Below, in pieces: positions 1 to 46,600 of a stretch of DNA of 64,000 nucleotides. Origin of the DNA: a virus; IMG/VR virus record IMGVR_UViG_3300027969_000052, positions 64,968 through 128,967 of that record. One strand, written 5' to 3'. The number at the start of each line of letters is the position of its first letter. Within the stretch, counting starts at the first letter, position 1. The notes beneath the pieces are model-generated. The model searched no databases. It had not been told where the DNA came from and saw only the letters and a list, made by a program, of their open reading frames with translations. A program made the translations under genes and the position numbers.

Positions 1-3000
1 TTTGTATAATTTCCAAATCCTGTATTATCAGTAAATGTTGCGCTACCTAAATTTAATGCAACACCTTGATTGCCCCACGAAGGCTGTGTTATATCGTTGC
101 TACGATCAATTGTATGGCCAACATATAAGTTTTTGCCGATACCAACACCGCCAAGAGTAACAATAGCACCAGTATCTGTACTGATTGCATCAATATCAGA
201 GTTTACTGTTAAACCGGTTGTGTTTAATGTGCTAGTTGTGTACCCAATTTGCAATGGATATATAATTGTTCCGCCGTTAAATCCTGTGGGAGTTGCTGTT
301 GTAAGTACTTGGGATCCGTTAACAAACAAGTTGCCCATGAAACCCGTGCCGCCAACCCACAAATCTTTTCCAATACCAGCTCCGCCGTAGGCTACAATAG
401 CACCAGTAGTTGTGCTAATAGAATTTGTAGTGTTTGTTTCTAATACTGGCTGAGTAATTGTGCCGCCATCAAATAAGATTGTTTGGCCGTTTTGTGTGTA
501 GATATTTCTTACATACAAGTCACCCTGGATGCCAACTCCGCCTACTACTTGTAGGGCACCTGTTGTTGTGCTTGTAGCCGCTGTTCCGTTTGCAATCTTA
601 ACGGGACCGTTAATTTGTGCGCCACCGCTTATTCCTAATCCACCGCTAACTAATACGCCACCAGTTGTTGGACTACTTGTTGCAGTACCATTGCCAAATT
701 TAACAATACCAGCAAAGTAAGAATCACCGCCAATGCCAATACCGCCAGTTGATACTACTAACGCATGATTAATAGTTTGTGTTGAATTTGCTAATGTGCT
801 TGCAAGAGTAACTTGGCTAGCAAAGTAACTGTTCTTATTAACACCAATGCCGCCTAATACTTGTAGGTCGCCTGTGTTTGTACTGATGCTTGCAACTCCA
901 CCTACTAATCTTAAAGTACCAAATCTAGCTGTACCAAAAGTACCAGTGCTGTTGAATGTTGCAGGGAAGAATTGGTCGCCGCCACCTGGGTAAATGTTGG
1001 TCTTCCAAATTAATTCACCAGTTGTGTTATCACGTCCTAAGAATGCGTGATTATCTGTAACAGATGTTGCGCCGGTATTGTAGTGTAATAACAATCCGCG
1101 ATCTAAACCATCATTAGTTGATAACGGAGCATTGCCAATTCCAGTACCAATATCAATTACAGGATCAATAATATATGTGTTTGTACTATCAACAATAGTT
1201 TGTGTGCCAAGTACTGTTAGGCCGCCCGTGAATACCGCACTACCATATACCGACAAGTCTTTCTTAACTGCAACTCCGCCTTCGACATAAACAGCATTTT
1301 CTTCAAAAATTGCTGTGCTTGATTGTGTTGATGTAATATGTAGTGCAACAAAAGTAGCAGTAAACGATTTGTTAAATGTTAATTGTCCGCCTAGGTCTAA
1401 GTTTCCGCCTATTACAACATCTTTGCCAATACCGACACCGCCAACAACTGTTAATGCACCAGTAGTTGTACTTGTTGAAGTAGCTGTGCCGCTAATATTA
1501 ACTTGTTGTGCGTTAATTTGTCCTTGTGCATTTGCAAAGTTTAAATTTCCGCCTAACCATAAATCTTGTCCAATGCCAACACCGCCTACTACTTGTAGGG
1601 CACCTGTTGTTGTGCTTGTTGATGTGGCTGTACCACTTACACGAATTTGTTTTGCACGTAAGTCAGCCGACTCACCTGTAAAGATTAAGTTACCACCGAT
1701 AGTTACATCGTTGCCAACGTTTAAATTTTCTCCTACGCCAACACCACCAACAACTGTTAATGCTCCTGTTGTTGTACTTGTTGACGTAGCTGTGCCGCTA
1801 ATGCGAATTCTTGATGCACGGATATCTGCCGCATCTCCAGTAAAGACTAAATTGCCACCTAATACTAAATCTTTGCCAATACCGACTCCGCCAGTAACAA
1901 CTAAAGCACCCGACGTAGTTGAAGTTGAATTTGTACTTGTTGTAAATAAAACTTGGCCTCTAGCACGGAAATTATTAACAACAAACTCGTCAGCAAGACC
2001 ACTGAATATTAGTTGGCCACCTAATACTAAATCTCCGGCAATGCCAACACCGCCATCTACAACTAATGCACCTGTTGTTGTGCTTGTTGAAGTGGCAGTT
2101 GAAGTTGAACGAATTTGATTACTTGCACTTAAATTTACAAAACGGCCGTCTCTTGGTAACACATTACCAATATCCATATTATCTAATGTGCCTTTTGTGG
2201 CAGGATTTACAATAAATGTACCTGCTCCACTAGGTTGAACATATACTGTTGCGCCAGCTGGACTTAAATTAGCCTGGCTTAGTACGTTAAAACTTCCAGC
2301 AATGTTTGTTGCACCACCTACCCATAAATTCTTTGTAATGCCAACACCGCCAGCAACAGTTAATGCACCGTTACTAGTTGCTGTAGAATCAATAGTTGAG
2401 CTAATGTTTAGTAAACTAGTAGCTTCTAAATATGTAAATTTACCAGTTGAAGGATTAAATGCTCCGATTGGAGACAAATCTAAATTCTTATTAATAACTT
2501 GTTGAGCCGATACACTATCAACAATTTCATACCAGCTTAATGGCGATACTTCTAATGTATCAAAAGTTCTATAATTTGTAAAGAATAATCTACCAGCACT
2601 AGTTCCGTACAATACAGGAACAACAACGTGATTTAACTCTCTGGTGGTATCTGCATCAGTTGTTCTTCTTAAAATTGTATTTGTTGGTTTAGTTCCTACA
2701 AATATTGCAGAAACAAATTTAGTAGGCGGAGTTCCTAAAACTGTAGTAGCTGTTAATAAAGAGCTAACGCCAGTGAATGTAGATGCTAACGTAATATTAT
2801 AAGTTAGTGCATTATCGTCTATAACAGAAAATGTTGTTCCACTAGACAATCCGGTTAACACTTGTTGCATTGTTGAACTTGCATCTGTAAAATTAATTAC
2901 AGTTCCGGTCCATGATGAAACATATGAGAAATCAGTAGAAGTAGTAAATGTATCGTTTGCAAATGTTGCGGTGTTTACATAATAGATACCATTTTCAGCG

Positions 3001-3440
3001 GAGTTGGTATTGTCTTTAATTAATGTACGATCTAACCAAGTTAGTCGACGACCGTCAACATAAGTTGTAGAAGTTACAGTATTAACTGCAACGTTAGCAG
3101 TTGATGCTACGACTACTTCGCGTTTAAAACCAGAACCAATAATACCATCAGGAATATTAACAGGACCGTTAAGTGTAATAGTACCAGTACCACTTGGATT
3201 TAGGGTTAAATCACCTGTGGTACTTTGAGAAGTCATACTACCATTATCAAATGCAATATTTCCTAATGTATTTGTAAAGGTTGCAACGCCGTTGGCACCA
3301 ATAACTAATGTATAACCAGTACCAGAGGTTGGTGTAAATCCTAACCCAGCCTGTGCTTGGTTAAGCGATATGTAGTTGTTAATTGTGTAATTGGTACCTG
3401 CCGAAGCTACTTTTACACGACCGCTGATTAATGATGGCAT
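1..3440 (-). CDS. Long tail fibre-like protein with ~13 STSTTTGALxVxGGVGIGxDL repeats (runs off window start; absent from ORF track)
   Basis: ATG at 3440 after AGGA RBS gives MPSLISGRVKVASAGTNYTINNYISL...; spot translation along the frame shows repeated GAL(T/Q/V)VxGGVGIG units typical of phage trimeric beta fibres. The + strand ORFs here are its antisense shadow. Confidence 0.85.
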   Translation of the reverse strand, partial: MPSLISGRVKVASAGTNYTINNYISLNQAQAGLGFTPTSGTGYTLVIGANGVATFTNTLGNIAFDNGSMTSQSTTGDLTLNPSGTGTITLNGPVNIPDGIIGSGFKREVVVASTANVAVNTVTSTTYVDGRRLTWLDRTLIKDNTNSAENGIYYVNTATFANDTFTTSTDFSYVSSWTGTVINFTDASSTMQQVLTGLSSGTTFSVIDDNALTYNITLASTFTGVSSLLTATTVLGTPPTKFVSAIFVGTKPTNTILRRTTDADTTRELNHVVVPVLYGTSAGRLFFTNYRTFDTLEVSPLSWYEIVDSVSAQQVINKNLDLSPIGAFNPSTGKFTYLEATSLLNISSTIDSTATSNGALTVAGGVGITKNLWVGGATNIAGSFNVLSQANLSPAGATVYVQPSGAGTFIVNPATKGTLDNMDIGNVLPRDGRFVNLSASNQIRSTSTATSTSTTTGALVVDGGVGIAGDLVLGGQLIFSGLADEFVVNNFRARGQVLFTTSTNSTSTTSGALVVTGGVGIGKDLVLGGNLVFTGDAADIRASRIRISGTATSTSTTTGALTVVGGVGVGENLNVGNDVTIGGNLIFTGESADLRAKQIRVSGTATSTSTTTGALQVVGGVGIGQDLWLGGNLNFANAQGQINAQQVNISGTATSTSTTTGALTVVGGVGIGKDVVIGGNLDLGGQLTFNKSFTATFVALHITSTQSSTAIFEENAVYVEGGVAVKKDLSVYGSAVFTGGLTVLGTQTIVDSTNTYIIDPVIDIGTGIGNAPLSTNDGLDRGLLLHYNTGATSVTDNHAFLGRDNTTGELIWKTNIYPGGGDQFFPATFNSTGTFGTARFGTLRLVGGVASISTNTGDLQVLGGIGVNKNSYFASQVTLASTLANSTQTINHALVVSTGGIGIGGDSYFAGIVKFGNGTATSSPTTGGVLVSGGLGISGGAQINGPVKIANGTAATSTTTGALQVVGGVGIQGDLYVRNIYTQNGQTILFDGGTITQPVLETNTTNSISTTTGAIVAYGGAGIGKDLWVGGTGFMGNLFVNGSQVLTTATPTGFNGGTIIYPLQIGYTTSTLNTTGLTVNSDIDAISTDTGAIVTLGGVGIGKNLYVGHTIDRSNDITQPSWGNQGVALNLGSATFTDNTGFGNYT
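538..575. repeat. 38-nt exact direct repeat, copy 1 (copy 2 at 1582-1619)
   Basis: ccgcctactacttgtagggcacctgttgttgtgcttgt occurs at both positions and encodes TSTTTGALQVVG. Confidence 0.9.
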
Positions 3441-3854: not shown

Positions 3855-6800
3855 TTATCCTTCAATTGCCAAGATGAACGGTGTCAAGTTAGCAAACAAT
3901 GACTTAGTAAACGTACGGCCTGATAACACACCAGTTGCCTGACTAATTACCAATCCCGGACCAATACGGAAGTCACCGTTTTGGTCAGTTGATGTAAAGA
4001 ACACCTTACCGTTATTCAATTGAATAACTTCTCTTTCCTGTCTTGGATCTGCTCGACCTATTTGCGGCAATGCGCCGTAGTTAGAACCTGCACCAACATA
4101 CTCAAACAAATAACCAGATGCAGACATATAAGCACGTCTATAGAAATTAATATTTGCTTTATCGGGGAACAATGCCGCATCTGCAACGTTATCTTCTAAT
4201 GTTACGTAATGATGAGTTTCTGTAATAGCATAATAACTCTTACCGCAAAGTACTGTGTTATAGTTACCGCCGCTGATTAAATCGGCCGCTAGCGCATCTA
4301 TTACGTAACCAACATCACGTTTACATAAGGCTTGGTTATATTCAAATCCGTTATACTTTCCGTCAATGTACGTAATTACTTGATTAATTAACGAAGTTGC
4401 TTGAGTTGCTATAATATTTTTAACGTTTAGTAGCGTTGCTCCGTATCCGCTTGTGCTTGGATATTCTATCGCAGGTGCAACTGATGTCCCGTTTGCAACA
4501 ATATCAGTTAAGATAGCAGTTAACGCTGTTAGTCTTGGATGTGCATTAGCTCCGTCGGGTGCAGAGCCGTTAGTAAATTGTGTATATGTATTTTGATAGC
4601 TAACTGCTGGAGCAGTATTTGTTGATACATTTTTCATTAATGTTAACAAATAATTAAATGCGCCCACGGTCTGCGGAATTTCTCCTGGAATCAATGTGCT
4701 TCCAGTTGAATCGAAATATACTAGACCAGCATCAACAGTCTGCCAATTTCCGCCATATGTTAAATCGTAAATTAAACTATGGATAACGTAGTCCAAATCT
4801 CTCTTGCACTTGTCTTGATTATATGTAAACACAGTATATGTTTCATTAATAAAAGTAATTGCTTCAGTTGCAATTAAAACTTTTGCAGATTGAATTGCTG
4901 TTCTTGCTGTTTTTTGACTTGTTGTTGCCCAAGTATAGCTAGGTTCTATAATAATTGGAACTGCATTAACACCGTCTTGAACAATAGTAGCCATGTCGCT
5001 GATTAGATCGGCAATTGTCGTGAGTGCTACAGATCCTTGACCTAACCCATTATCACTAAATCGTGTAACACCGTTTTGATAACTTACGACCGGTGCTAGG
5101 TTTTGTACAACTCGAGCCGCAATAGTATTGATATAGTTAATGCCAACAATAGTTTCTGCTACTTCTCCAGGATTTACACGAACATTGTTGTTGGCGCTAT
5201 TAAAGTACTGAAGTGCCGCATCAACCGACATGCTGTTGCCGCCGTATGTTAAGTCATAGATTAGAGCATCTAATAAGAATCCAACATCTCGTTTGCATTT
5301 ATCTCTGTCATATACTAATGAAGGATATGTTACATGGATATATGCTTCAACTTCTGCCTGGATATATGCTTTATTTCCTTGCAATAACTGACTTGCACTA
5401 GAAACTCCGGTTGCTGTTCCTGGAGGAATAGTGTAGGTCACTGTCGGGCTTGCACTTAAACCGGTTTGAATGATGCTTGCAATATTGGCAAAATCATTAG
5501 TTACTGTTTGTGTAGCAGTAGTACTACTCTGTACTGCATTTAATCCCAAAATATATTCTTTAACAAAATTAAATGCGGCCAGTGTTTCTGGTTTTTCATC
5601 GTTAAGAACATTATCAGCATTACCGCGATAGTAAGCCTGTCCAGATTTAATTGAACGATAGTTTGTTCCTAAAACAATATCCCACTCAACACCGTCGATG
5701 ATGTATCCGATATCGCGTTTACATTTTGTTTCGCTGTAGGTAAAGATTGGATATGTTGCATTAATCCAACCAATAGTTTCTTCCTTGATAAAGTCAAGGT
5801 TATTTAGGATTAACGATTTTCCATTAGCAATGCCTGTATCAAATCCCGAAGGGTTTGGCATATTATAAGCAGGTGCTGTATTGCCACTGATGATATTATT
5901 GATATTAATACCGTCAACGTTAATTATAGAAATTGCTTGAGTAACTGTACTAATTCCGCTTAACTGGTTTGTAAGAGCAGATAGTTTTGAAATAGCATCA
6001 ATTGTTTGTGCTTTTTCTGTCTCTAAGACATATTGACTACCTGGAACATTTCTCAAGTATGCATTTCCGCACTTGATAGATTGATAGTTACTTTGGAATA
6101 ATGCATCCCAAGCAAACCCGTCTAGAATATAACCTAGGTCTCTGCGACAAGTTGCATGGTCGTAAATAAAATATTGGCTATTAATATATTCAATTATTTC
6201 TGCTTGTACAAATGTCTTATTAGCTAGCAATAATGCGGCCGCATCGCTTGCGCCAGGTGCAACAATTCCTTCTTTAGTTGTTGCTGGCACAGCATTTAAA
6301 CCATTAGAAATGATATCTTCTAATGTTTGGAATAGTTCTCCAATTTTAATTGTTGCTTGGGCGCCTTTGCTTAATGCAATATTTGTTACTTGTGTTGCAG
6401 TTGTTTGTAATGCATTGACTAAGGTATTACTTACAATACTTGTAGTCAACGTGTTTAGGTATTGCAATGCTTGAATTTCTTCAGCGCCTTGATCATTACC
6501 TTGAGCAGTTGCACTAGATCCTAACTTAAATGTGCCTGGAGTAATTGGGTCTGGAGCTAATTCACTTGAACGAACGGTGTAATATGCATTGCCAGCAACA
6601 TACATTGTAAAGTAGTTAACATTTGTAGAGTCGCCACCGCCTGCTGAGATACTATCGCTTAATGTAATAGCTTTAAAGTTTACATCTGTAATGATAGTGT
6701 CTTCTGGAATATAACGAGTTCCATTAATATCAGTGTAAGAACCGTATTGATCACGTGCATAAATCTTTTGACCAATAACAATACCTTCTGTATCAATGCC

Positions 6801-9800
6801 GTTAATTGTCACACTACCTGTAGTCAGTGTGCTAGTGTTTACTGCGGCTTGTAGGAAGCCAGGTAATCCTTGAGCATTTGTATATGTTTCAGGCGGCACA
6901 ACTTCCATAATCAATCCAATGTGCGGACGATTGTCCGGATCTGGACAGAATACTTGTACAATTTGACTTTGCGGGAAGAAACCATTTGGATAGTATGGTA
7001 ACACCGGCGGATTATATACTTCGCCGAAGAATTCGCGCTCTCCATATCCTTTTGCAACCAGACAGTAATCACCGAAGTTGGCGTTAGAGTTGGTAATAGA
7101 ACAAATGCCACCATTTTCTACAATAACAGATGTTCCGCAGAAAATCGTAAACACAGATACTAGCTGTGCATAGCCGTTGTTGGTAATTTTAATACCAATA
7201 CCGCCCTGGTTAACTTGTGTAAACGCATCATAAACAAAAGACTGGATCGGTGAACGTTTAGAAACAACACCACCATCAACTAAACTTCCGCCAATTGAGC
7301 CTAACGGATCAATTCGACGTTGTGCCCACCTTGCAGGAATATATTTTTCTTTTGTTGGATATACCCCAGTCTGACCAAAGTATAGTGTGCCGGCTGTGGC
7401 TGGGCCTAATACTGGTTCGCTTAGGTAAATCTTATATCTATCACCACCCAACGACTCTACATCTAAAATAGTCGAAGCTGGTTGAATATCATCTGCGGAA
7501 GAACTGATTAAGTTGAATACTCCAGATCCTTCGTATGCTTCGGGGGCAACATCTGGTCCTTTGGCAATAATATTCTTTAATATTTCGATTAGTCGAGTAA
7601 TGCTTCCTAACGCATAAACTCCACCACCAAAATAATTGTTAATAATTTGTGTAGCACCACTAATTGATGTTAACGCTGTGTTTGTTACAACTTTTTCACA
7701 GACTGTTTTTAGGTATTCCATTGCGGCATTGTTTTGTGGTATTTCACTAGCAATTACGTTTACGCCGCCGGTCCAATAACTTACACCTGCTTCAATAGTT
7801 TTACGATTTCCGCCAATTAATAAATCTTGTGCAATAGCATCAACAATTAAACCAACGTCACGATAGCACTTTTCTTGATTATAGTTAAAGCTATCAGTAC
7901 CATATGTACTGTCAACCCATGCAATAATTTCATTTTGAATAAATGTTCTATTCAAATCTAATAAGATCATTGCTTTTTGTATTGACGGATCTTCGTTCAT
8001 AGTTAAACTTACAGGAACTTTATCAATACCTTCGCTTGGGCCATTATCAATAATATTTGTAATTAATCCCAACATATCTAACAAGACTGTACCAACTTCT
8101 TCAGTTGACGGATTGTTGTTAAATTGCTGTTGTGCTACATTTCCTGCTGAAGGAATAATAGGTTGTTCAGTTATAACTGCTGTAACAATTTGTTTTAACC
8201 TGTCGTATGCCGCAACTGTTTGGTTCTGTTCATTTGGAACCATTGTTGAATTAGCATTAAATCCGTAATAGTAAACTCCAGACATAATTGCTTGTCTATT
8301 ACCGCCGTATAAAATATCGTGGCTTACAGAATCAATTAAGTATCCAACGTCCCTGTAGCACTTGTCCTGATCATACTCGAAGCCCATTGAGTATGTATCG
8401 TAGATGTAGGCAATAGTTTCAGCAACAATAAATTCTTTATTTGCTTCAATCATTAATGCCGCATTAATCACATTATCATTTGTACTGCGAGTTAAACTAA
8501 TAGGGGTCTTTTTGCTTACAACACTAGGACCGTTGGTAATAATATTAGTAATAACATCAACTTTGCCTTGAGCAAGAGTTGCTTCTGTAGCAGTACCGAC
8601 TCCTAAGTTAGTTACTTGAGAAACAACTGCTTGTTTTGGAGATGCTAGCGGAGTTGCTGTTATAATGTCATCTAGTATTGATTTAATATAATTAAATGCC
8701 GCAACTGTTTGTGTGACCTCGCCAGGTATTGCGGTTGATGCCGCATTAAATGAGTAGTAGTAAACGCCGCTTTGAATTGCTTGGCGGTTGCCGCCATATA
8801 ATAAATCAAAGCTAACACTATCAATCATGTAACCAACGTCACGATAGCACAATGCTTGATCATAAGTAAAGCCCGGAGTCTTTGTAGATTCTACATAGGC
8901 CACTGCTTCTGCTTGAATATATGCTTTGTTTGCCTGTAACAAATCGTAGGCTTGTGTTATATTTGGATAGGTACTTGGAGTTAATCCGTTTGCAATAACA
9001 CTATCAGTAACACCGTCAGTTCCGTTCTTTAATATATTAAGAATTACTGTAAAATCTGATTCAACTCTAGATGCTTCTGTAGTTGTTCCTACAGGCAAGT
9101 TTGTAACTTGAGTTACTGTTGACTGGTAGCGTGTTCCAACAGTATTGTTTAACACAATTTTTTGTGCTAGACTAGAAACATATTCTATTGCATTTGTTGT
9201 TGTAGTTAACTCACTAGCAATCGCACCAGTATATCCGTTTTGATTCCAGTATTGTAATCCTGCAAAGGTTGCTTGGCTTGACGTTGTAAACAACAAGTCT
9301 TGGGCGATAGCATCAACAATTAATCGAGTATCTCGTTTACAGGTAGTATCGTCAAACACAAATCCTGGTGTTTTAGTTTGTTCTACATAAGCAATAACTT
9401 CTGCTTGCAAATAACTCTTATTTGCCTGTAACAGATCAAATGCTTTTTGTGCATTTGCTCCTGCAATAGTAATACCATTTGGTATTACAAGATCCGTTAC
9501 TCCAGTAGTTCCGCCGATTAAAATATTTGTAATTGTCGTAAATTCTGTTGCAATAGACTGTGCTTCTATTGCAGTAGCTGGGGGTAGAGTATTGAATAAT
9601 TGTGTAATTGTACTTTGATAACGTACTCCAGACACATCATTACGAATAACTTTTTGTGCAACACTACTTAGATAGTTAATTGCATTTGTTGTTGTAGTAA
9701 GTTCTGATTGGATTAACCCTGTATATCCATTTTGATTCCAATATTGAAGACCGGCAAAATTACTGTTAATGAATCCATTTGATCCCCAACCTAAGTCGCC

Positions 9801-12800
9801 GATTAAACTATCAACAATTAATCCTGTGTCGCGATAACATTTTACTTTGTTATAACTAAAATTAGAATTATTATAAGTGTCGTTAATAAACGCAACGATT
9901 TCGTTTGCTAAGAAAGCACGGTTAGCTCTCATCAATGCAAATGCTCGTTGAACACTTGTGCTGGTACTCTTAGTTAAACTAATAGGAGTCTTGTTGGTTA
10001 CAACACTTGGACCATTATTAATAATGTTTGTAATAACATCAATGAATCCTTCTAAGTCTTCTGACTCTACAGTAGTTGCAGGGGGTAAATTTGTTACTTG
10101 TGTTAACTGATTACCTCTACTACGTGCCACTGGTGTAGCCGTAACAATACTATGTATTAGACCTTTTAGGTGATTGTATGCCGCGATTGTTTCTGGTTTT
10201 TCGTTTGGAATAGCACTTGATGCCGCATTAAACGAATAATAGTAAACTGCGCTCTGGATTGACTGTCTGTTACCGCCATGTAGTAAATCAAAACAAATGC
10301 TGTCGATTATATAGCCAGTGTCTCTTCGACAAGTAGTTTGATTATAAGTAAAGCCAGATGTCTTTGTTGATTCAACATAGGCAATAACTTCATCAATCAA
10401 ATATGCTTTATTGTTTTGTAATTGAGCATAGGCATGTAACACACCCGGAGTTGTTAATTCTTCACCGTTTGGAACAATCTTATCAGTTACACCATCAGTA
10501 CCATTTAGAATAATATCGATCATTAGATCAAAGTTAGTACCAACAGAACTTGATTCTAATACTGTACCAGATGCATTTGCAGTAGATTGTGAAGATACTG
10601 ATTGATATCGAGGACCGGATACATCATTTAAAATAATTTTCTGTGCAACACCACTTAGATAAGTTATTGCATTTGTTGTAGTTGTAAGTTCAGTTCCGAT
10701 TAATCCAGTGTAACCATTTTGATTAAAATACTGAAGACCTGCAAATGTTGATTGACTAGAATTAGCTGTAGGATATAATAAGTCAAACGCAACTGCATCA
10801 ACAATTAGTGCTGTGTCTCTACGGCATTTTGCAGAATTAAACGGAAATGATAGGAACGATTGATTTACATAAGAAACAATTTCTTCTTGAATGAAGGAAC
10901 GATTTGTTTCTAATAAAACTTCCGCAGACATATAGTACGGATCAATAGCACATGCTGGATATACAGTTGGAGCCGCAGTCGGACCATTTTCAATTATGTT
11001 TGTAATAATACCAAATCTATCAGCCAGTGCTTGGGACGCAATGCCCCCGCCAGTTAATACATAGTTAATTACTTGAGTTTTAGTTGCTAAAGATCCTAAT
11101 AGATTTGTAACGGTTTGATTTTTAATTACTTTATCAGCAATGGTATTAATATAGTTAATAGCACCAATTGTTTGTGTTTCTTGACCAGCAATTACACTCG
11201 TAACACCTTTATAATATGCAAGGCCTGCCTCAACCGTTTTTTCATTGCCGCCGGCTAGTGCATCAAAGCTAACGTTTTCTAAAATAATACCAACGTCTCT
11301 GTAGCATAGTTCTTTGTTATAAACAAAATTTGGAAGTGAGTTAACATAGGCAATTACTTCTGCTTTAATAAAATTCTTATTTGCAACTAGCAAGTTGTAG
11401 GCTTTTAGCAATCCTGTTTCGGCTGTTATAGATAAACCAATTGGTTCTAATGACGGTGCACCGCCTGGGCCGACTCTAACTAATCGTGTAATAATATCAA
11501 GATTAGTCGACAACGTTGTTGAGGCCGCGGCCGTACCTGCGTTAGCATTATCTAAAACTTGCGAGATTTCTGATTGATAGAAACTTGTTAATTCTTGACT
11601 TTGTACTACCGCAGAGATTACACTCTTCATGTAATCATATGCTAAAATTGTTTGTGGTTGTTCGTTTGGAATTGCACTCTGAGTTGTGCTATACCCGTAA
11701 TAATAAGTACCTGCTTGTATTACTTGGCGGTTGCCACCACGTAACAAGTCAAATGTTACACAATCAACAATGTATCCAACGTCTCTCTTACAAGTTGCTT
11801 TACTATAAACAAAAGTTGGTGCATTAGATGTAATCCATGCAATAGCTTCTGCTTTTAAAAATTCTTTGTTTGCCTGTAATAGGGCCGCGGCGGCTTGTGT
11901 ACTTGTATTTGATGTTACAGTTGTTCCGTTTGGAATAATTTTACCTGTAATACCAACCGTACCTTCTGTAATAATATTTGTTGCAGTAGTAAACAATGCG
12001 CTAACAGTATTTGCATTACCAATTGTACCAGCTGGCAAGTTTGTTACTTGTGTTAGTGTATTTTGATACGGACTAGATAGTGCTTGTCCGCGAACAACTA
12101 ATTGCGCAATACTATTGATGTAATTAATTGCATTTGTTGTAGTAGTCACTTCTCCAGCAATTTGTGTCGGTGTACTTGTCTGGCTCCAATATTGTAAACC
12201 AGAAAATACAGACTGACTTGTTGAATTATAAATTAAATCTAAACTTAGTCCGTCAATAATTAATCCTGTGTCACGAGCACACTTAGTTGCATCGTATTGA
12301 AAGGGGCCGCCGTATGTTTGATCAACATAAGCAACAACTTGTTCTTGAATGAACGATTTGTTTGCTAGTAGTAATGTTCTAGCATTATAGAATCCAGGAT
12401 TAGGAGGACCACCATTAATTGCTTGTCCTGCATAAATTTGGCCTTCTGTTAATGTAACTGTAATTTCTTGTGAGCCGGCTTCGTATGTAGAAATGCCGAC
12501 ACCTTCTGGGACTTGAACTGTTTGATTAGGCACAAACATTGTACCATCGTATAACCATGGACCAGATTGGTTGGTACAGTTTTGAATATATGGTGAGTGG
12601 AATACGTCAATCGGTTGACCATTGTCACCTTGTGGAGGAAACGCAGTTGCGTATGCACCTCTGTTTGTATCTGAAGTATAGCCTGTTCCTGGGAAACGTC
12701 CTGAACGGCCGTTGTACATCATTAATTGTGCAACATAACAGCCTTGACGAACGTGGAATAAGTCTTGAGTCTTGTTAACAGGTTCTATAACTGTTGTACG

Positions 12801-13661
12801 TAAGTCAGAGCCAATTACAGAAGTATATGGCTTCATTTCAATTGGATTGTTTTCTAGATAGCGACCTGGTGCTACTTTAATACTTGTGCCAGGTTTGTAT
12901 AACGGACTTTTTGTTGCACCTGAAACTGTACGGCAAGCACGGCTAGCATCAATGGCTCCGCCGTCGTTAGTATCACTACCGTCTTCATTTACATATAAAG
13001 TGTTTGCGGTAACTGGGCCGGTGCCTAATGGTGTGCCACCCCAAATTTTAACATTACCTTTTAAATTAATAATGCCGTCATTAGGAACAATATCAATGTT
13101 GCCAGGTAATATGTTGGTAACTGTGTTACCAGACATGTGCATATTGCCAGCAAATAAATCTTTAAAGTATCCCTGGTTCCAATTTTGGCTAGCCGAGCCG
13201 ATATTATATGTGTTTGGAACTTGTGGAATTAAGTCTGAAATAAACTCAGCACCAACTTGCAACGTATCAGTAGCAGTTGTATCGCCTAATCGAATATTTC
13301 CGTCAGCTGTAATATTTCCAGATGCGTGTAAGTTACCAACAACTTCAGTGTCTGCATCTAACCAAATTTTATTGTTGCCGGCTGGGTCAATGTGGATTGG
13401 ACCAAGGGTAGATCCAATAGTACCGCTTGTTAGCGATTTAGTAACTGTAATTAAGCCAAGTGTGGAAGTATTTGAGACACGTAGTACACCTACGTTTGCG
13501 GTGCCGTTGACATCTAAGTCATATTGCGGAGCCGATGTTTTAACACCTATACGGCCAGTTTGAACATCTAAGTATAAGAGATCAGTTTCAACTGATAAGT
13601 TTACTCCGTCACGTAGCAAGTTACTTGCAAGTAACGGACCTGTAATTCGACCTACGGCCAT
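3855..13661 (-). CDS. 3268-aa virion spike/fibre protein: pectin-lyase-like beta-helix interrupted by 15 C-x-R-D helical repeats
   Basis: GAGGAG RBS; N-terminal GRIGVKTSAPQYDLDVNG fibre motif; beta-helix cap TLYVNEDGSDTNDG...IKVAPGRYLE...SVIGSDLRTTVIEP; 15 copies of (Y/F)xxxxCxRDxxxxxxxxxxD, most followed by a GGN-like turn. Confidence 0.9.
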   Translation of the reverse strand: MAVGRITGPLLASNLLRDGVNLSVETDLLYLDVQTGRIGVKTSAPQYDLDVNGTANVGVLRVSNTSTLGLITVTKSLTSGTIGSTLGPIHIDPAGNNKIWLDADTEVVGNLHASGNITADGNIRLGDTTATDTLQVGAEFISDLIPQVPNTYNIGSASQNWNQGYFKDLFAGNMHMSGNTVTNILPGNIDIVPNDGIINLKGNVKIWGGTPLGTGPVTANTLYVNEDGSDTNDGGAIDASRACRTVSGATKSPLYKPGTSIKVAPGRYLENNPIEMKPYTSVIGSDLRTTVIEPVNKTQDLFHVRQGCYVAQLMMYNGRSGRFPGTGYTSDTNRGAYATAFPPQGDNGQPIDVFHSPYIQNCTNQSGPWLYDGTMFVPNQTVQVPEGVGISTYEAGSQEITVTLTEGQIYAGQAINGGPPNPGFYNARTLLLANKSFIQEQVVAYVDQTYGGPFQYDATKCARDTGLIIDGLSLDLIYNSTSQSVFSGLQYWSQTSTPTQIAGEVTTTTNAINYINSIAQLVVRGQALSSPYQNTLTQVTNLPAGTIGNANTVSALFTTATNIITEGTVGITGKIIPNGTTVTSNTSTQAAAALLQANKEFLKAEAIAWITSNAPTFVYSKATCKRDVGYIVDCVTFDLLRGGNRQVIQAGTYYYGYSTTQSAIPNEQPQTILAYDYMKSVISAVVQSQELTSFYQSEISQVLDNANAGTAAASTTLSTNLDIITRLVRVGPGGAPSLEPIGLSITAETGLLKAYNLLVANKNFIKAEVIAYVNSLPNFVYNKELCYRDVGIILENVSFDALAGGNEKTVEAGLAYYKGVTSVIAGQETQTIGAINYINTIADKVIKNQTVTNLLGSLATKTQVINYVLTGGGIASQALADRFGIITNIIENGPTAAPTVYPACAIDPYYMSAEVLLETNRSFIQEEIVSYVNQSFLSFPFNSAKCRRDTALIVDAVAFDLLYPTANSSQSTFAGLQYFNQNGYTGLIGTELTTTTNAITYLSGVAQKIILNDVSGPRYQSVSSQSTANASGTVLESSSVGTNFDLMIDIILNGTDGVTDKIVPNGEELTTPGVLHAYAQLQNNKAYLIDEVIAYVESTKTSGFTYNQTTCRRDTGYIIDSICFDLLHGGNRQSIQSAVYYYSFNAASSAIPNEKPETIAAYNHLKGLIHSIVTATPVARSRGNQLTQVTNLPPATTVESEDLEGFIDVITNIINNGPSVVTNKTPISLTKSTSTSVQRAFALMRANRAFLANEIVAFINDTYNNSNFSYNKVKCYRDTGLIVDSLIGDLGWGSNGFINSNFAGLQYWNQNGYTGLIQSELTTTTNAINYLSSVAQKVIRNDVSGVRYQSTITQLFNTLPPATAIEAQSIATEFTTITNILIGGTTGVTDLVIPNGITIAGANAQKAFDLLQANKSYLQAEVIAYVEQTKTPGFVFDDTTCKRDTRLIVDAIAQDLLFTTSSQATFAGLQYWNQNGYTGAIASELTTTTNAIEYVSSLAQKIVLNNTVGTRYQSTVTQVTNLPVGTTTEASRVESDFTVILNILKNGTDGVTDSVIANGLTPSTYPNITQAYDLLQANKAYIQAEAVAYVESTKTPGFTYDQALCYRDVGYMIDSVSFDLLYGGNRQAIQSGVYYYSFNAASTAIPGEVTQTVAAFNYIKSILDDIITATPLASPKQAVVSQVTNLGVGTATEATLAQGKVDVITNIITNGPSVVSKKTPISLTRSTNDNVINAALMIEANKEFIVAETIAYIYDTYSMGFEYDQDKCYRDVGYLIDSVSHDILYGGNRQAIMSGVYYYGFNANSTMVPNEQNQTVAAYDRLKQIVTAVITEQPIIPSAGNVAQQQFNNNPSTEEVGTVLLDMLGLITNIIDNGPSEGIDKVPVSLTMNEDPSIQKAMILLDLNRTFIQNEIIAWVDSTYGTDSFNYNQEKCYRDVGLIVDAIAQDLLIGGNRKTIEAGVSYWTGGVNVIASEIPQNNAAMEYLKTVCEKVVTNTALTSISGATQIINNYFGGGVYALGSITRLIEILKNIIAKGPDVAPEAYEGSGVFNLISSSADDIQPASTILDVESLGGDRYKIYLSEPVLGPATAGTLYFGQTGVYPTKEKYIPARWAQRRIDPLGSIGGSLVDGGVVSKRSPIQSFVYDAFTQVNQGGIGIKITNNGYAQLVSVFTIFCGTSVIVENGGICSITNSNANFGDYCLVAKGYGEREFFGEVYNPPVLPYYPNGFFPQSQIVQVFCPDPDNRPHIGLIMEVVPPETYTNAQGLPGFLQAAVNTSTLTTGSVTINGIDTEGIVIGQKIYARDQYGSYTDINGTRYIPEDTIITDVNFKAITLSDSISAGGGDSTNVNYFTMYVAGNAYYTVRSSELAPDPITPGTFKLGSSATAQGNDQGAEEIQALQYLNTLTTSIVSNTLVNALQTTATQVTNIALSKGAQATIKIGELFQTLEDIISNGLNAVPATTKEGIVAPGASDAAALLLANKTFVQAEIIEYINSQYFIYDHATCRRDLGYILDGFAWDALFQSNYQSIKCGNAYLRNVPGSQYVLETEKAQTIDAISKLSALTNQLSGISTVTQAISIINVDGININNIISGNTAPAYNMPNPSGFDTGIANGKSLILNNLDFIKEETIGWINATYPIFTYSETKCKRDIGYIIDGVEWDIVLGTNYRSIKSGQAYYRGNADNVLNDEKPETLAAFNFVKEYILGLNAVQSSTTATQTVTNDFANIASIIQTGLSASPTVTYTIPPGTATGVSSASQLLQGNKAYIQAEVEAYIHVTYPSLVYDRDKCKRDVGFLLDALIYDLTYGGNSMSVDAALQYFNSANNNVRVNPGEVAETIVGINYINTIAARVVQNLAPVVSYQNGVTRFSDNGLGQGSVALTTIADLISDMATIVQDGVNAVPIIIEPSYTWATTSQKTARTAIQSAKVLIATEAITFINETYTVFTYNQDKCKRDLDYVIHSLIYDLTYGGNWQTVDAGLVYFDSTGSTLIPGEIPQTVGAFNYLLTLMKNVSTNTAPAVSYQNTYTQFTNGSAPDGANAHPRLTALTAILTDIVANGTSVAPAIEYPSTSGYGATLLNVKNIIATQATSLINQVITYIDGKYNGFEYNQALCKRDVGYVIDALAADLISGGNYNTVLCGKSYYAITETHHYVTLEDNVADAALFPDKANINFYRRAYMSASGYLFEYVGAGSNYGALPQIGRADPRQEREVIQLNNGKVFFTSTDQNGDFRIGPGLVISQATGVLSGRTFTKSLFANLTPFILAIEG

Positions 13662-26800: not shown

Positions 26801-27880
26801 TTACTCGCCCATATTCTTAATGGGCAGTCCTTTAATGTTTGGTTCTGGAGCAGTTACATCTTGTTGTCCAGCGGCCTTGTTAAAGGCTATCGTGTTGTCG
26901 GCAGGTACTTCTTCATCTGCTTGTGCTGGAGGAAGCCCAGCATTTTTTCTAATAGAATCTAATTGTTGCTCTGCCGAATCGAGTGATTGTTTTGCATAAT
27001 CGATCACATCTTGACGACGATCTGATCTGACTACATTTACAGTCTGCATTGCGTTGTCAATTGCCTGGCGCCCTTGGGGAACTCCGACCTTTTGTTTGTT
27101 AGAAGCAGTAGCATTTGTAGTGTTTACGTTGTTTTGCGGATCTGTCTCGTTGCTTGTTGGAGCGGCCGCATTTCTAACTGCGGCTGGAGTATCTGCAGTC
27201 GGTTCAGCTTGTCCTACTTCCGGGCTCGTCGGTTGTGCAACATCAGTCGGATCAGCTTGAGATGCTTGAGGTGCTTGTTGCACTTGAGCGCCAGCATGTT
27301 GCTGTGTTGCGGCCTTGATAGCTTTGGCAACTATATTCATTTTTAAGGTATCGCTCGGAGCTTCAACCAACATGTTTAAAATATTACGGATACTTTCTTG
27401 GGCTGTTGGAGCAACTGCGGCTGGACTGGTTCCGGTTACACCAGGATTTCTGGCATTAGACCACACAGAAGGTTTTTGTTCTGGGGCAGGTTCCTCCATC
27501 GGTCCGCCAGCCTCCTGCGGAGTTGGATGTGTAATATCATCGTCTGCTGGCTCGTCGACTTGAGTAGATTGAGCGATTACCTGTTTAGCATTATCTAACG
27601 GATAACCTTTCTTTTGCAAGTAAGCAAGTAGACTTGCTTCTGTAGGTTGCTCACCTGTTTGCCCCAATAGCTTTTGATAACCAGCCATTACTTGATTAGC
27701 TAACGCACCTACATTTAGACGTCCTTGTGCTTGTGCGCTAAAGTTAGGTGTAATACCTGTTGTCTTATTGATTAAGTTACCAGTACCTGCCGCTACTTTG
27801 TTTCCTAATTTACTTAGAAAACCCATAGGCTGAGCTTCGTTAACATTACCAGATTCGTTTACAAGTTCATTAATTTGCAT
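26801..27880 (-). CDS. Low-complexity A/P/Q-rich protein, possible internal head protein
   Basis: Start MQINELVNES at 27880 with GGAG RBS and late promoter CATAAATA at 27901-27908; the track's 27931 start lies upstream of the promoter. Confidence 0.7.
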   Translation of the reverse strand: MQINELVNESGNVNEAQPMGFLSKLGNKVAAGTGNLINKTTGITPNFSAQAQGRLNVGALANQVMAGYQKLLGQTGEQPTEASLLAYLQKKGYPLDNAKQVIAQSTQVDEPADDDITHPTPQEAGGPMEEPAPEQKPSVWSNARNPGVTGTSPAAVAPTAQESIRNILNMLVEAPSDTLKMNIVAKAIKAATQQHAGAQVQQAPQASQADPTDVAQPTSPEVGQAEPTADTPAAVRNAAAPTSNETDPQNNVNTTNATASNKQKVGVPQGRQAIDNAMQTVNVVRSDRRQDVIDYAKQSLDSAEQQLDSIRKNAGLPPAQADEEVPADNTIAFNKAAGQQDVTAPEPNIKGLPIKNMGE

Positions 27881-27900
27881 TTTATAGTCTCCAACAAGGA

Positions 27901-27908
27901 TATTTATG
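27901..27908 (-). promoter_or_regulatory. Late promoter motif CATAAATA
   Basis: TAAATA core 20 nt upstream of ATG 27880. Confidence 0.7.
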
Positions 27909-27909
27909 T

Positions 27910-28364
27910 TATTAAATGAGCTAACGCTCATTTGCTTCTGCGCTTCGCTTGAAGCATTTTTAGTTATCTAATACTACGAAGTAGTTTAACTATTATCTAG
28001 ATATAATGGTCACACTTTACCCAGGTAACCGGGTAAAGAAAACTTGGCATTATCTGAGTACGCAAGTCACTTAGCGTTGTAGCATTACTGAGGCGGTCAT
28101 CCTGTACCCCTAGCTACGTCTTATTATGACGGTATGCTATTGTATATACGCTAACACATACAATAACACCGGGGTTTTTCTCCCCTCTTTTAGCTCTTAT
28201 TCACTCTATTCAAATATCAAAACCGCGGCAGATTGCGATCGTCGTCCTGTTAAGGATGGTTGATAAGTGCTCTGTACAGCGCAGAGGCTTCCGTCCCCGT
28301 TATTATCCGGTTGTCGCTAGGCACCCGATTTAAGCCGGTGCGAGCATATCCTGTAAGACTGAGC
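27910..28364 (-). ncRNA. Putative large structured non-coding RNA and/or origin-like element (unassigned family)
   Basis: ~455 nt without a plausible ORF in a densely coding genome; more than 10 stems; G-U pairs work only on the minus strand; loop TTAGCG is complementary to a downstream CGCTAA (pseudoknot). Confidence 0.65.
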
Positions 28365-28793
28365 CTAGATTTTGTTGATTATGTGAGAGCCATGGACACG
28401 GACTGAGATTTGTCCGTTATAGTAATCTGCTGATTCTAATACTTTGCGGTTGAATTGTTCAAGGGCCTCGATGTAAGAGCATACTGCTTTGCTTTTGCAA
28501 TAATGCAGGATCTCTCGCGTGAATTGTTCTTTGCCTAATTTTAAAACGTCTGTGTTTAATTCTAAGTTAGATCCGTAATATTCTTGCCAGTCGCTGTCAA
28601 TTTTACTACGTATTTTCTTTTTCTTCTTGTTGCCGTTCTTTAACTTTACAGTCTTGTAGGTCGTTTTACTAAACTTTGCTAATTTTTTGCCAATATACAT
28701 GCGCCCCGTGACGGTGTTAGTGATAAGATAAACAAATCCAACACAGTCCTCGGGTAGTTGTTCAATGACAGTACCTTGATAAGTCCAAGACAT
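28365..28793 (-). CDS. Stand-alone GIY-YIG nuclease (EndoII/DenA-sized)
   Basis: GFVYLITNTVTGRMYIGKK, YYGS, FTREIL, E and YYNG motifs; 142 aa with a K-rich insertion and no C-terminal DNA-binding module. Confidence 0.85.
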   Translation of the reverse strand: MSWTYQGTVIEQLPEDCVGFVYLITNTVTGRMYIGKKLAKFSKTTYKTVKLKNGNKKKKKIRSKIDSDWQEYYGSNLELNTDVLKLGKEQFTREILHYCKSKAVCSYIEALEQFNRKVLESADYYNGQISVRVHGSHIINKI

Positions 28794-43679: not shown

Positions 43680-46600
43680 ATGAAAAGAAAAAAAAGTCCT
43701 AACGAGCTAGTTGACGCATACAACGCAGACGCATCTGACCATCAACGTCAAACTGCTAACCTTTTACCGGGATACCTTCAAACAGATAAAAATAAAAGAT
43801 TCTTATCTGCAACATTAGACAAACTAATTGAAGTTCCACAAATTGAACGTATTAATGCATTTGTCGGTAGCAAATTAACTAATACATTTAATCCTGAGAC
43901 AGATCAATATTTAGATAGCACAACAGAACTTGCAAAAGATTATCAATTAGAGCCTGCATTAATAATCAAAAATGCAAAGAATAATATTGATAAAGTCCAA
44001 ACCTATGATGATTTATTATCTAGTTTGGCATTTGCTGGCTCGCCCGCTAAAAATCATGATAGAATTTTACAGGCTAAAACATTTAGTTATAATCCCCATA
44101 TTGACTGGGATAAGTTTGTAAACTATAATCAATACTATTGGTTAGAAGCTGGTCCTGATTTAATCGAAATCACAGGACCAATAAAAGCCACTGTTAGCAC
44201 ATACACAGTAACTGACAGTCCTGATACAGATGTTTGGATTATTAGTCCAGACGGCCTAACACCAAATCCTGTTCTAACATTGTTTAGAGGCATGACGTAT
44301 GTGTTTAATGTAGACAGCAGTCATAATTTTTATATCAAGACAGCAATAAGTTACGGTAAAGAAGATACCTACGACAAAGCATTAAACAATGGACCTAAAC
44401 AAGGTCAGGTAATTTTAACAGTTGACGATAACACACCGTCGACTTTATTCTATGTTGCTAGCGATGACCAACGGATTGCTGGCCGAATTATTGTTAAAAA
44501 ATTAACTGAAAATTCTGAAATTGATGTTGAAAAAGATATCTTAGGAAAGACGACTTATAGTTCAGGTAACGATGTACAATTCACTAATGGACTAATGGTA
44601 TATTTTAGCGGCCAAGTTACTCCGGAAAAGTATAAAAATAAAAGATATATTGTTGAGGGTGTTGGCGAAGAGATTGTTTTAATCGATTTTGATACATTAA
44701 AGAATAATGTCAACGCATCAAATAATTTGGACACCGACTTTGACGTTGAGCCGTTTGATAAGTTTCCGTTCGACGACTTTAGAAATGCTCCGATATCTCC
44801 TGAGTATGTAACTATTAATCGAGCAAGTAGAGACTTAAATCCGTGGACTCGGTATAATCGCTGGTTCCATAAAGATGTTATTGCGGCCTCTGCTACAGCT
44901 AACGGCACTGATCCCGTTTATCCTGTCGATAAGCGAGCCAAGAGACCTATTATTGAATTCCGACCAAACATCAAATTGTATAATTTTGGTTACTCGGCAA
45001 TGTCAAATATTAACTTAATGGATAACTCAACTCTTGATGCATTTACTAATGTTGAAAGAAGTTTTGGTTATTATGTTGATGGAGTAAAACTAGAAGAAGG
45101 TTTTAGAGTTATATTCAATGCAGATACTGATCCGTTAGTTAGAGGTCGAGTTTATACTGTAAAATTTGAAGACCTTGACGGGAATCAAAGAATTAATCTT
45201 ATTGAAGATCCTCAAGGAATCCCATATGACGGCGCAACGATTGTTAATTCCGACGGAACTAACTATAAAGGGTCTAGTTGGTTATGGAACGGAACAAGCT
45301 GGGATCCAGCCCAACAAAAGACAACAATTAATCAAGCGCCGATTTTTGATTTGTTTGATGAGAATGGCATAAGTTTTAGTAACACTGATTACTATCAAGG
45401 CAGTTTTGCAGGCACACGCATATTTGGATATACTGAAGGCACCGTCTATGATTCAGTATTAGGATTAAATTTAAAATTCTTAAATGTGGCAAACATTGGA
45501 GATTTCTTATTCTCTAATTATTTTAATACAGATAGTTTTGTTATTTCAAATACAGCTAAAAACATAGTATTCCCGGTCAGTTCTGGTTATTTAAAAATTG
45601 CCACAGATAGTTCAACTTCATTTAATAACGTATGGGTAGAATCAGAAAGTTCTCGTATTCCTATTTTACAATACAACATAATTACTGAGATTTCTAACAT
45701 AGTAGAAATTAATGCAATTGACTATCCCGGTTGGACTGAAGATCTTACAATCGATGTTTGGATAAATGATAAAAAACAAAAGTTAGGTACTGATTTTAAT
45801 TTTTCCGTCCAAGATCAATTTTATTTTGCAATTTTTGTAAACAATTTAGCATTACATGATAAAGTATTATTCAAGATATATACTACTCGAGCACCGAATG
45901 CATTAGGTTACTACGAGCCTAGCCCGGCGCTAACAAACAATCCAACGAACGGTCCTATAGCACAAGTGACTCTTGCAGAAATGTCTGATAACTTTAAAAC
46001 TATAGTAGAACGTTTAGATAATTTTAGCGGTAACGTTATAGGAGAAAATAATTTTCGAGACCTGGGACAAGCATCAAAGTACGGCACTCGATTAATTAGT
46101 CATCAGTATCCTCTTAGCTTTGCCCAGCTTTTTTTAGGACAGCAAGAATATAATTTAGTAACAGCTATAAGAAAAGTTGCAAACGATTATTACTATTATA
46201 AAAATTCTTTTGTCAATAAACTACTTACAATCCCTAAAGAAACATTGCCGAGAGATGCAGTAGATCAAATACTAGTTGAATTAAATTTAGGTAAAGATAT
46301 TAACTTTCCTTACGGTTTTAGTGATATGTTGACTTATGGAAAAGATTATAAATCTAGAACCTATACAGTTACAGACACGAGAATTACTAGTTACAGTATT
46401 GATTCATCGTTTGACAGTTCAGCACTAACAGAAAGAGCCATCTTAGTTTATAGAAATGATTTAATCCTAACTCATGGAGTAGACTATACATTTGACAAAT
46501 ATCAAGCAAATGTAACTTTTAATTTTACATTAACATTAGGTGATGTTATTGTTATTAAAGATTATGCAACAACTGAAGGTTGTTACATTCCTCCAACACC

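Follow-up and report, generated by a model that had tools for sequence, protein, structure and literature searches.

Phycobiliprotein-like globin-type repeats in a giant tail-fibre-type protein of a T4-like jumbo phage

The window analysed here is a stretch of 64,000 nucleotides of viral DNA, positions 64,968 to 128,967 and hence the second half of the IMG/VR record IMGVR_UViG_3300027969_000052 (128,967 bases). On its minus strand, at 3855..13661 (stop codon included), lies a gene for a predicted giant virion protein, tail-fibre-like and 3268 amino acids (aa) long. The protein has 15 copies of a repeat with a Cys-x-Arg-Asp (C-x-R-D) motif. The predicted fold of the repeat is that of the bilin-binding globins, and the motif stands where phycobiliproteins attach their bilin. 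We consider this fold, and homology to the bilin-binding globins, highly probable. The whole explanation, in which the repeats are globin beads on a fibre that bind bilins, goes further, and we give it a probability of about 45%.

The C-x-R-D motif occurs 15 times in the protein. In the first array (ten units) the Cys residues are at aa 461, 624, 786, 946, 1111, 1275, 1441, 1605, 1768 and 1932, spaced 160-166 aa; in the second they are at aa 2505, 2647, 2789, 2952 and 3113, with spacings of 142, 142, 163 and 161 aa. The expectation from the protein's own composition is 0.035 motifs, and 2000 shuffles gave a mean of 0.037 and a maximum of 2; the count is far above chance. A profile built only from repeats of other viral loci (foreign repeats) places units at window 7521-12413 (ten) and 3948-6269 (five), and none in any other open reading frame (ORF) of the whole 128,967-base record. 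The 15 repeats and spacings described in the first-pass annotation are thus confirmed, and the text that it quoted for repeat 2 is the same as the translation; the list was incomplete by an extra half unit at 6264-6521. The 15 units align over ~163 aa and are 23-41% identical to repeat 2. Invariant in all of them are C, R, D, a second Asp (+14 from the Cys) and a Tyr (+30).

The likeness to phycobiliproteins appears in several sequence comparisons. The only significant Pfam match of the whole protein is PF00502 (Phycobilisome protein; E 2.5e-11, 44.2 bits against a cut-off of 22.2), a score that sums related repeats. The first-pass annotation had proposed comparing single repeats with this family. 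Six of the 15 match (E 6.1e-4 to 0.1), but none alone reaches the gathering cut-off of 22.2 bits, the best scoring 20.2. One repeat of a relative, the jumbo record G003, does pass it alone (26.2 bits). In an independent sample of 150 diverse repeats from 53 other viral loci, 33 match PF00502 at E<=0.1 (best 2.2e-5), and each of the 44 other Pfam families listed is matched by a single member. In a profile search of the PDB with the own repeats, all 20 matches are phycocyanin alpha chains of 162-163 aa (best E 0.0024). With the foreign repeats eight of ten matches are phycocyanin (best E 0.002), the other two being a pilin and an adhesin fragment. The alignments place the Cys on Cys84 and run from helix B via the loop into helix E. 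The Pfam and PDB sequence searches of the repeats matched neither families nor chains of the RsbR type or of globin sensors. For the core 20-mer, which the first-pass annotation gave as 10/20 identical to phycocyanin alpha, the count against a fetched CpcA, made by eye, is 8/20.

Profile-profile alignment with hhalign gives a similar picture and also shows where its strength lies. The 150-repeat alignment, compared with a phycobiliprotein profile of four sequences (two CpcA and two CpcB from a cyanobacterial plasmid), aligns over 94 collinear columns (repeat positions 14-112 with phycobiliprotein positions 39-143) with a probability of 82.9% and P 9.1e-6. As controls, the reversed phycobiliprotein alignment gives P 0.38, and the best of 40 column shuffles gives P 0.018 and a score of 20.0. 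When the four motif columns are masked, the same 94-column alignment scores 19.0 (P 0.029), down from 38.9, so that about half of the sequence signal is the motif itself. Against this thin four-sequence profile, the similarity beyond the motif is not above background (19.0 masked, 20.0 for the best shuffle). Such a result would be compatible with convergence, that is, with an unrelated helical repeat that shares the C-x-R-D helix start and the helix arrangement by chance. We hold convergence to be improbable: masking leaves the extent of the alignment, 94 collinear columns, unchanged, the PDB profile search aligns helix B as well, no Pfam family except PF00502 recurs among the 150 foreign repeats, and a structure comparison that is blind to the motif, described next, also speaks against it.

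An AlphaFold2 model of a single repeat from 15 alignment rows was too poor for use (pLDDT 56, pTM 0.29). A two-repeat model (aa 539-904), based on 137 tandem-pair rows from the window and 60 foreign locus frames, reached pLDDT 91.3 and pTM 0.73. It has five helical elements per unit, read as helices B (kinked), E, F, G and H, the set of a globin-type fold; helix E of repeat 2 comprises model residues 83-103. A Foldseek search of this model against the PDB gave no match (best E 0.84), and the ESM Atlas no usable match. The model was also compared with 48,161 chains by VIA-align, a method independent of both Foldseek and the sequence motif. The ten best matches listed, with score, root-mean-square deviation (rmsd) and number of aligned residues, are the RsbR-type non-heme globin 3zta_A (9.7, 3.4, 102), phycoerythrin 5aqd_M (9.2, 2.9, 109; 18% identity), allophycocyanin 8or7_A (8.7, 1.6, 84), the ApcE bilin domain 4xxi_A (8.5, 2.1, 88), arabinosyltransferase AftA 8if8_B (8.2, 15.8, 140), the pXO2-61 sporulation inhibitor 3pmc_B (7.8, 3.3, 98), a phycobilisome chain of 1043 residues read as ApcE, 7eyd_19 (7.7, 2.6, 90), a phycobilisome core chain of 158 residues, 8imk_G (7.6, 2.0, 83), a phycobilisome chain of 658 residues also read as ApcE, 9wg7_N2 (7.4, 2.5, 92), and phycoerythrin 1b8d_A (7.3, 2.4, 90). 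The AftA match is spurious because of its rmsd, and pXO2-61 is presumably a globin-type sensor. Seven of the top ten are therefore phycobiliproteins or ApcE and two more are globin-type, which argues against chance resemblance. The globin sensors 4zva_A and 4uiq_A are also among the fold matches, and the repeat 3 part of the model (residues 240-358) likewise matches phycobiliproteins.

In the predicted structure, the repeat shows the globin-type fold of the bilin-binding globins, including phycobiliproteins, ApcE and RsbR-type globins. C-x-R-D stands at the start of the helix aligned to phycobiliprotein helix E, and its register is that of Cys84/Arg86/Asp87; both HMMER and hhalign put the Cys on Cys84, and the motif is at the alpha84/beta82 site in 15 of 15 repeats. 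For the phycocyanin stretch 1-117 the alignment covers only 81 residues, at model residues 38-118, so part of the N-terminal region of phycocyanin has no counterpart in the repeat; in our reading of the model, the missing part is probably the X-Y hairpin. The earlier proposal of a phycobiliprotein-like globin-type domain with its motif at the bilin site is thus upheld by Pfam, the PDB profiles, hhalign and the fold matches, although the fold comparison that had been suggested succeeded with VIA-align and failed with Foldseek.

The repeat belongs to a very large phage family, in which the motif is conserved best. Among 1.84 billion proteins, the repeat profile finds 1549 representatives of 50% identity clusters at E<=0.001 (1196 at E<=1e-10, 683 at E<=1e-30). 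The best 150 of the 1549 are 790-6382 aa long and have 4-40 repeats per protein; in these and the own protein, C-x-R-D is kept in 1388 of the 1482 domain instances that cover the motif region. In 796 full-length instances, conservation is 94% for the motif Cys, 95% for its Arg and 98% for its Asp, 100% for the second Asp (+14) and 98% for the Tyr (+30). By numbering of the hidden Markov model (HMM), Asn at position 19 follows with 85%, Tyr at 40 with 84%, Thr at 92 with 83% and Gln at 122 with 84%. Arg and Asp are both kept in 737 of 752 domains that have the Cys, as against 19 of 44 that lack it (Fisher p 2.7e-25). The triad is lost together, and because of this, Cys, Arg and Asp appear to behave as one functional unit, as a ligand site predicts. 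The repeat was not found as a stand-alone globin among 98 homologous proteins of near-repeat length; 14 of these that were examined (123-179 aa) are mostly C-terminal fragments of giant proteins.

These conservation data also bear on what the site is for. The repeat may be of bilin-binding globin descent and yet serve now as a rigid helical bead that lengthens the fibre and has no chromophore, with Cys, Arg and Asp kept for folding or for contacts between beads. We regard such an exaptation as a real if doubtful possibility. A copy number of 4-40 per protein is what one expects of a length-setting module. Moreover, the most conserved residue, the second Asp, is not a phycobiliprotein feature, and it is kept in 44 of 44 Cys-less domains (the Tyr in 33 of 44). 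However, if the role were purely structural, it would be unusual for a lone Cys to be kept at 94% in domains that share ~27% identity, where Cys makes up 0.70% of the residues of the proteins, and to be lost together with Arg and Asp. The top conserved positions (C, R, D, D, Y, N, Y, T, Q) are mostly polar or aromatic rather than those of an aliphatic core.

A different chemistry at the same site, on the same fold, is distinctly improbable in our estimate: binding of heme, a metal or a host surface molecule, or cross-linking of chains or beads. Globin-type folds do bind heme and serve as non-heme sensors, some of which (3zta_A, 3pmc_B, 4zva_A, 4uiq_A) match the model. The invariant Asp and Tyr are specific to this family and suggest a site unlike that of phycobiliproteins, and the own phage record encodes no bilin supply. 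On the other hand, motif and register are those of a bilin attachment site and not of a heme-binding globin, and the conserved columns have, as we infer, no proximal-His pattern. No other Cys is present in 609 of the 796 domains, which excludes a disulfide within the domain for most units.

Bilin binding by the fibre beads, the explanation we favour, would work as follows. Two arrays (ten units; five units and a half unit) of an all-helical domain of ~163 aa are set into a shared fibre scaffold, and each domain would form a bead with a ligand site. A thioether would link the Cys to a linear tetrapyrrole, whose propionates and pyrrole nitrogens would be held by Arg and Asp as they are in phycobiliproteins. 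No lyase would be needed for attachment, as has been reported for BBAG-1 and BBAG-3, two groups of bacterial phycobiliprotein paralogs (the bilin biosynthesis-associated globins, BBAGs). The host would supply the bilin or, in some relatives, the phage would make it with a heme oxygenase and ferredoxin-dependent bilin reductase (FDBR) of its own. Chromophores would then stand in a row on the fibre, 15 per chain and up to 40 in relatives. Light sensing at adsorption would be the preferred use; photoprotection and fold stabilisation are other possible ones.

A bilin supply is encoded by some phages that have the repeat. Among five large relatives, psbA is present in none, and heme oxygenase together with FDBR in one. 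This is G003, a 230-kb jumbo record with the repeat, in which genes for heme oxygenase and a PcyA/PcyX-like FDBR are adjacent (L072 1498-2028 and 2009-2686; G003:C1 ~47.4-48.6 kb). The FDBR gene at 48 kb is away from the repeat-gene locus at 205-226 kb (PF00502-like repeat matches at ~216-219 kb). A T- or S-type lyase is absent from five of five jumbo records. FDBR was found in three of 50 repeat-bearing records searched. These represent 50 of 62 loci (L026, on the same record as L014, was left out, as were L044, L047, L049, L054, L056, L061, L065, L067, L068, L069 and L070), and their summed CheckV completeness is about 11 genome equivalents. The G003 FDBR has 257 relatives in viral contigs. 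For the reverse search, 80 FDBR loci were kept and 50 of them searched, on records of at least 25.4 kb and with G003 itself excluded, and the repeat was found in seven of the 50. It is present in all five FDBR-bearing records larger than 100 kb (353, 345, 215, 129 and 115 kb; psbA is absent from these five) and in both that are at least 90% complete. The 43 FDBR-bearing records without it are fragments of at most 91 kb.

Several results weigh against bilin binding by the fibre, in addition to the masked alignment score given above. FDBR, heme oxygenase, CpeT and CpeS are all absent from the own record; a relative that is 93% complete (G001) has no heme oxygenase, FDBR or T/S-type lyase. These two absences are also what a structural bead without chromophore would lead one to expect. 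Pfam and PHROG scans across the own record (Pfam on 53 first-half ORFs and 18 further window ORFs, PHROG on 29 window ORFs) found no photosynthesis or bilin gene, so the earlier statement that the window has no bilin enzyme holds, also for the whole record. The wider search that had been recommended with it was negative in the own record and G001 and positive in G003. Pelagibacter phage Mosig (141,461 bases, complete), the closest isolate match of the G003 FDBR (38.9% identity), encodes heme oxygenase, FDBR and ferrochelatase, and has no match to the repeat profile despite the first two genes. Mosig thereby rules out the repeat as an explanation of all phage bilin genes. Finally, a jumbo-phage clade seems to have the repeat as a core gene and bilin synthesis as an accessory trait, and the co-occurrence of repeat and FDBR may simply reflect shared lineage.

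Cyanophages that have the repeat offer a comparison with behaviour in light and dark. According to passages of Liu et al. (2019, PMC6628666), adsorption in the dark is absent in P-HM1 and P-HM2 and occurs, though less, in P-SSM2; excerpts of the literature say of S-PM2 that it does not adsorb in the dark. Repeat profile matches number four in P-HM2, four in P-HM1, ten in S-PM2, three (weaker) in P-SSM4 and none in P-SSM2. The repeat ORFs are at 54.7-57.5 kb and 83.0-83.9 kb in P-HM2, and at 55.5-58.1 kb and 166.3-170.3 kb in S-PM2. The presence of the repeat agrees with a light-sensor reading, on about three independent phages. The boldest form of the explanation, in which the repeats are true virion biliproteins, both a lyase-independent bilin acceptor and the tail-fibre photoreceptor behind light-dependent adsorption in cyanomyoviruses, is unlikely as it stands. 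If true, a bilin acceptor would explain the heme oxygenase and PcyA/PcyX-type FDBR of jumbo phages of non-photosynthetic hosts.

The same cyanophages were inspected for lyases. Genes for a CpeT-type lyase (PF06206) are present in P-HM2, P-HM1, S-PM2 and P-SSM4, all with the repeat, and absent from P-SSM2 and Mosig, both without it; six genomes are too small a sample to weigh. In S-PM2, cpeT (163,952-164,479) is about 1.5 kb upstream of a giant repeat ORF. The S-PM2 record NC_006820.1 has, at 165,928-177,267, tRNA features inside the span of a 'short tail fiber protein' coding sequence, sharing its locus tag. A 3792-aa open frame with repeat matches runs through that region, which looks like an annotation muddle.

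A tblastn search of isolate phages with four repeats matched 250 records, by name Synechococcus (216), Cyanophage (27) and Prochlorococcus (6), the sole other being one 'Marine' record. No isolate of the Vibrio phage 2.275.O or GAP32/CBB-type group matched. In viral metagenome contigs, 680 stretches encode relatives of the repeat. The best 62 loci include records of 207-332 kb, and the closest relative among them is G001 (331,570 bases), 80% identical in a repeat. A scan of genome contigs with a four-repeat alignment returned 54 pattern stretches and no relative, which is weak evidence of absence from cellular genomes. Of the 120 best full-length relatives listed, 71 have a precomputed PF00502 match, so automatic pipelines already flag the likeness; the named ones are called 'hypothetical protein'. 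A full-text literature search, which covers journals other than subscription ones, turned up no paper that deals with domains of phycobiliprotein likeness in structural proteins of phages. In passages of PMC2984593, PMC10665884 and PMC12801897, phycobilisomes appear only in relation to host pigments or to cpeT, cpcT and nblA genes.

The assignment of the gene product as a tail-fibre-type virion protein rests on profile matches and its place among structural genes. The whole protein matches phrog_4527 'short tail fiber' (E 3.8e-146), phrog_5342 'tail fiber' (E 1.2e-144) and phrog_701 'virion structural protein' (E 6.3e-85), and homologues are called 'structural protein' or 'tail fiber' by their depositors. 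The first-pass annotation had spoken of a phage spike polyprotein. The assignment to virion proteins of fibre type stands, but 'spike' and 'polyprotein' do not, since this is one protein with two arrays in a fibre scaffold.

From its N terminus, and on the minus strand throughout, the protein begins with a non-repeat region (aa 1-415, 12417..13661), of which aa 187-312 match positions 28-152 of phrog_17885 (E 1.3e-19). The first array follows. Repeat 1 (11925..12413; Cys461, codon 12279-12281) matches the foreign-repeat profile with E 1.1e-58. Repeats 2 (11436..11924; Cys624, codon 11790-11792) and 3 (10947..11435; Cys786, codon 11304-11306) match PF00502 with E 6.1e-4 (20.2 bits) and 0.0023. 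The motif and the foreign-repeat profile define repeats 4 (10464..10955, Cys946), 5 (9978..10463, Cys1111), 6 (9474..9977, Cys1275), 7 (8985..9473, Cys1441) and 8 (8496..8984, Cys1605). Repeats 9 (8007..8495, Cys1768) and 10 (7521..8006, Cys1932) again match PF00502, with E 0.0051 and 0.1. The middle non-repeat region (about aa 2048-2380, 6522..7520) matches positions 657-745 of phrog_17885 (E 1.1e-20); it was scanned as aa 2051-2459 (window 6285-7511), and the matching part is residues 73-162 of the scanned piece. For both this and the N-terminal region, there was no Pfam match and the PDB sequence search gave nothing meaningful. The half unit (6264..6521) has the last two helices only (profile positions 86-159; foreign-repeat profile E 5.9e-10). 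In the second array, repeats 11 (5871..6269, Cys2505) and 12 (5427..5855, Cys2647) are of a short form and, like repeat 14 (4452..4940, Cys2952), are defined by the motif and the foreign-repeat profile; repeat 13 (4935..5429, Cys2789) matches PF00502 with E 0.0068. In repeat 15 (3948..4457, Cys3113; foreign-repeat profile E 1.3e-22), the second half is replaced by a conserved C-terminal domain (aa 3150-3268, 3858..4214), which matches positions 903-1001 of the 1002 of phrog_17885 (E 7.6e-24). The same C-terminal tail is also present in the short fragment proteins found among the near-length homologues.

The three non-repeat regions match the 1002 positions of phrog_17885 in order, and therefore both arrays look like insertions into a shorter ancestral fibre protein or shared scaffold. 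That arrays should be set into a scaffold common to a tail-fibre family of ~1000 positions is in keeping with beads that merely lengthen the fibre. A beta-helix in the non-repeat regions, which was also considered, was supported by no tool, and that reading was dropped.

The source phage is a T4-like jumbo phage of ~350 kb, a size that follows from the 37% CheckV completeness of the record. The structural and replication genes of the record form a T4-like set, made up of major head protein, portal, prohead protease, a gp55-like sigma factor, SbcCD, baseplate hub and wedge, sheath, terminase, a UvsX/RecA-like protein and gp32. The repeat gene sits in the structural module, with major head protein, portal and baseplate genes as neighbours, and the closest relatives of the capsid protein, at 69-70% identity, are from Vibrio phage 2.275.O and GAP32/CBB-type jumbo phages. 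We found no support for regarding the phage as a cyanophage. The psbA gene is missing from five of five large relatives and from the five FDBR-bearing records, the ORF scans of the own record gave no photosynthesis gene (PF00124 itself was not run there), and the capsid protein is nearest to those of Vibrio and enterobacterial jumbo phages.

Three other giant ORFs are present in the 129-kb record, and the C-x-R-D repeat is absent from all three. One of 4699 aa (window 43680-57779, plus strand) matches the virion structural family phrog_10938 (E 2.7e-303) and, weakly, CBM_5_12. Those of 4439 aa (G000:C1 48068-61387, minus strand) and 2315 aa (61460-68407, minus strand, extending to window 3-3440) have no Pfam match. 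A SegE-like GIY-YIG homing endonuclease gene (window 28365-28793, minus strand; PF19835 E 2.5e-32) lies between baseplate and SbcCD genes. Three genes in the first half of the record are unusual in a T4-like genome: those for a pirin-like cupin (G000:C1 1602-2252, plus), an AlgH-like (DUF179) protein (8576-9136, plus) and a protein with a TnsA-like endonuclease domain (27759-28202, minus).

Excerpts of PMC11480375 (2024) describe cassettes of heme oxygenase and PcyA/X in phages proposed to infect non-photosynthetic hosts, call their purpose open and name interaction with BBAGs as one possibility. With the repeat, that purpose would become testable. In seven jumbo records PF00502-like matches occur only inside giant ORFs, bar one marginal 87-aa frame, and the repeats are thus the only phycobiliprotein-like candidates found there with this family. 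If bilin is bound, phage particles may carry pigments. Even without pigment, the bilin-binding globin superfamily is extended from soluble cellular proteins to extracellular fibre arrays of up to 40 domains. So large an added branch (at least 1549 clusters at 50% identity) bears on the origin of phycobiliproteins.

With the repeats, the bilin-binding globin superfamily is met in a new setting and in a new architecture, the likeness itself having been flagged by automatic Pfam annotation. Among known systems, phycobiliproteins share with the repeat the globin-type helices B to H, the unit of ~160 aa and C-x-R-D at the start of helix E; phycocyanin alpha is nearest in sequence, and phycoerythrin, allophycocyanin and ApcE in fold. 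Phycobiliproteins, however, are free alpha and beta subunits, whereas the phage repeats form tandem arrays of 4-40 in giant fibre proteins. The repeats also differ in their family-specific invariant Asp and Tyr, in the lack of a lyase in the phage and in that no own repeat reaches the Pfam cut-off. The BBAGs, described from heterotrophic bacteria by Rockwell, Martin and Lagarias (2023, PMC10151467), are paralogs of phycobiliproteins that occur outside photosynthesis. Passages of that paper state that CXRD is common to many phycobiliproteins, BBAG-1 and BBAG-3, show bilin attachment without lyases and use the RsbR globin as outgroup; in these passages phages appear only in connection with PcyX. 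Compared by description, BBAG-1 and BBAG-3 have CXRD in common with the repeat, and the BBAGs are linked to heme oxygenase and FDBR, as are some repeat-bearing jumbo phages. Unlike the repeats, BBAGs are single small cytoplasmic proteins encoded in operons, and the phage FDBR is not next to the repeat gene. RsbR-type non-heme globins and globin-coupled sensors resemble the repeat in the fold search only. The giant fibre proteins of T4-like cyanophages (PHROGs 4527, 5342, 701 and 17885; ORFs of S-PM2 and P-HM2) are true homologues with the repeat. Their annotations read tail fibre, short tail fibre, baseplate wedge or structural protein, and within the literature searched none of these points to the likeness to phycobiliproteins. 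Unlike these cyanophage homologues, the copy described here belongs to a jumbo phage with a capsid protein of the Vibrio 2.275.O and GAP32/CBB type.

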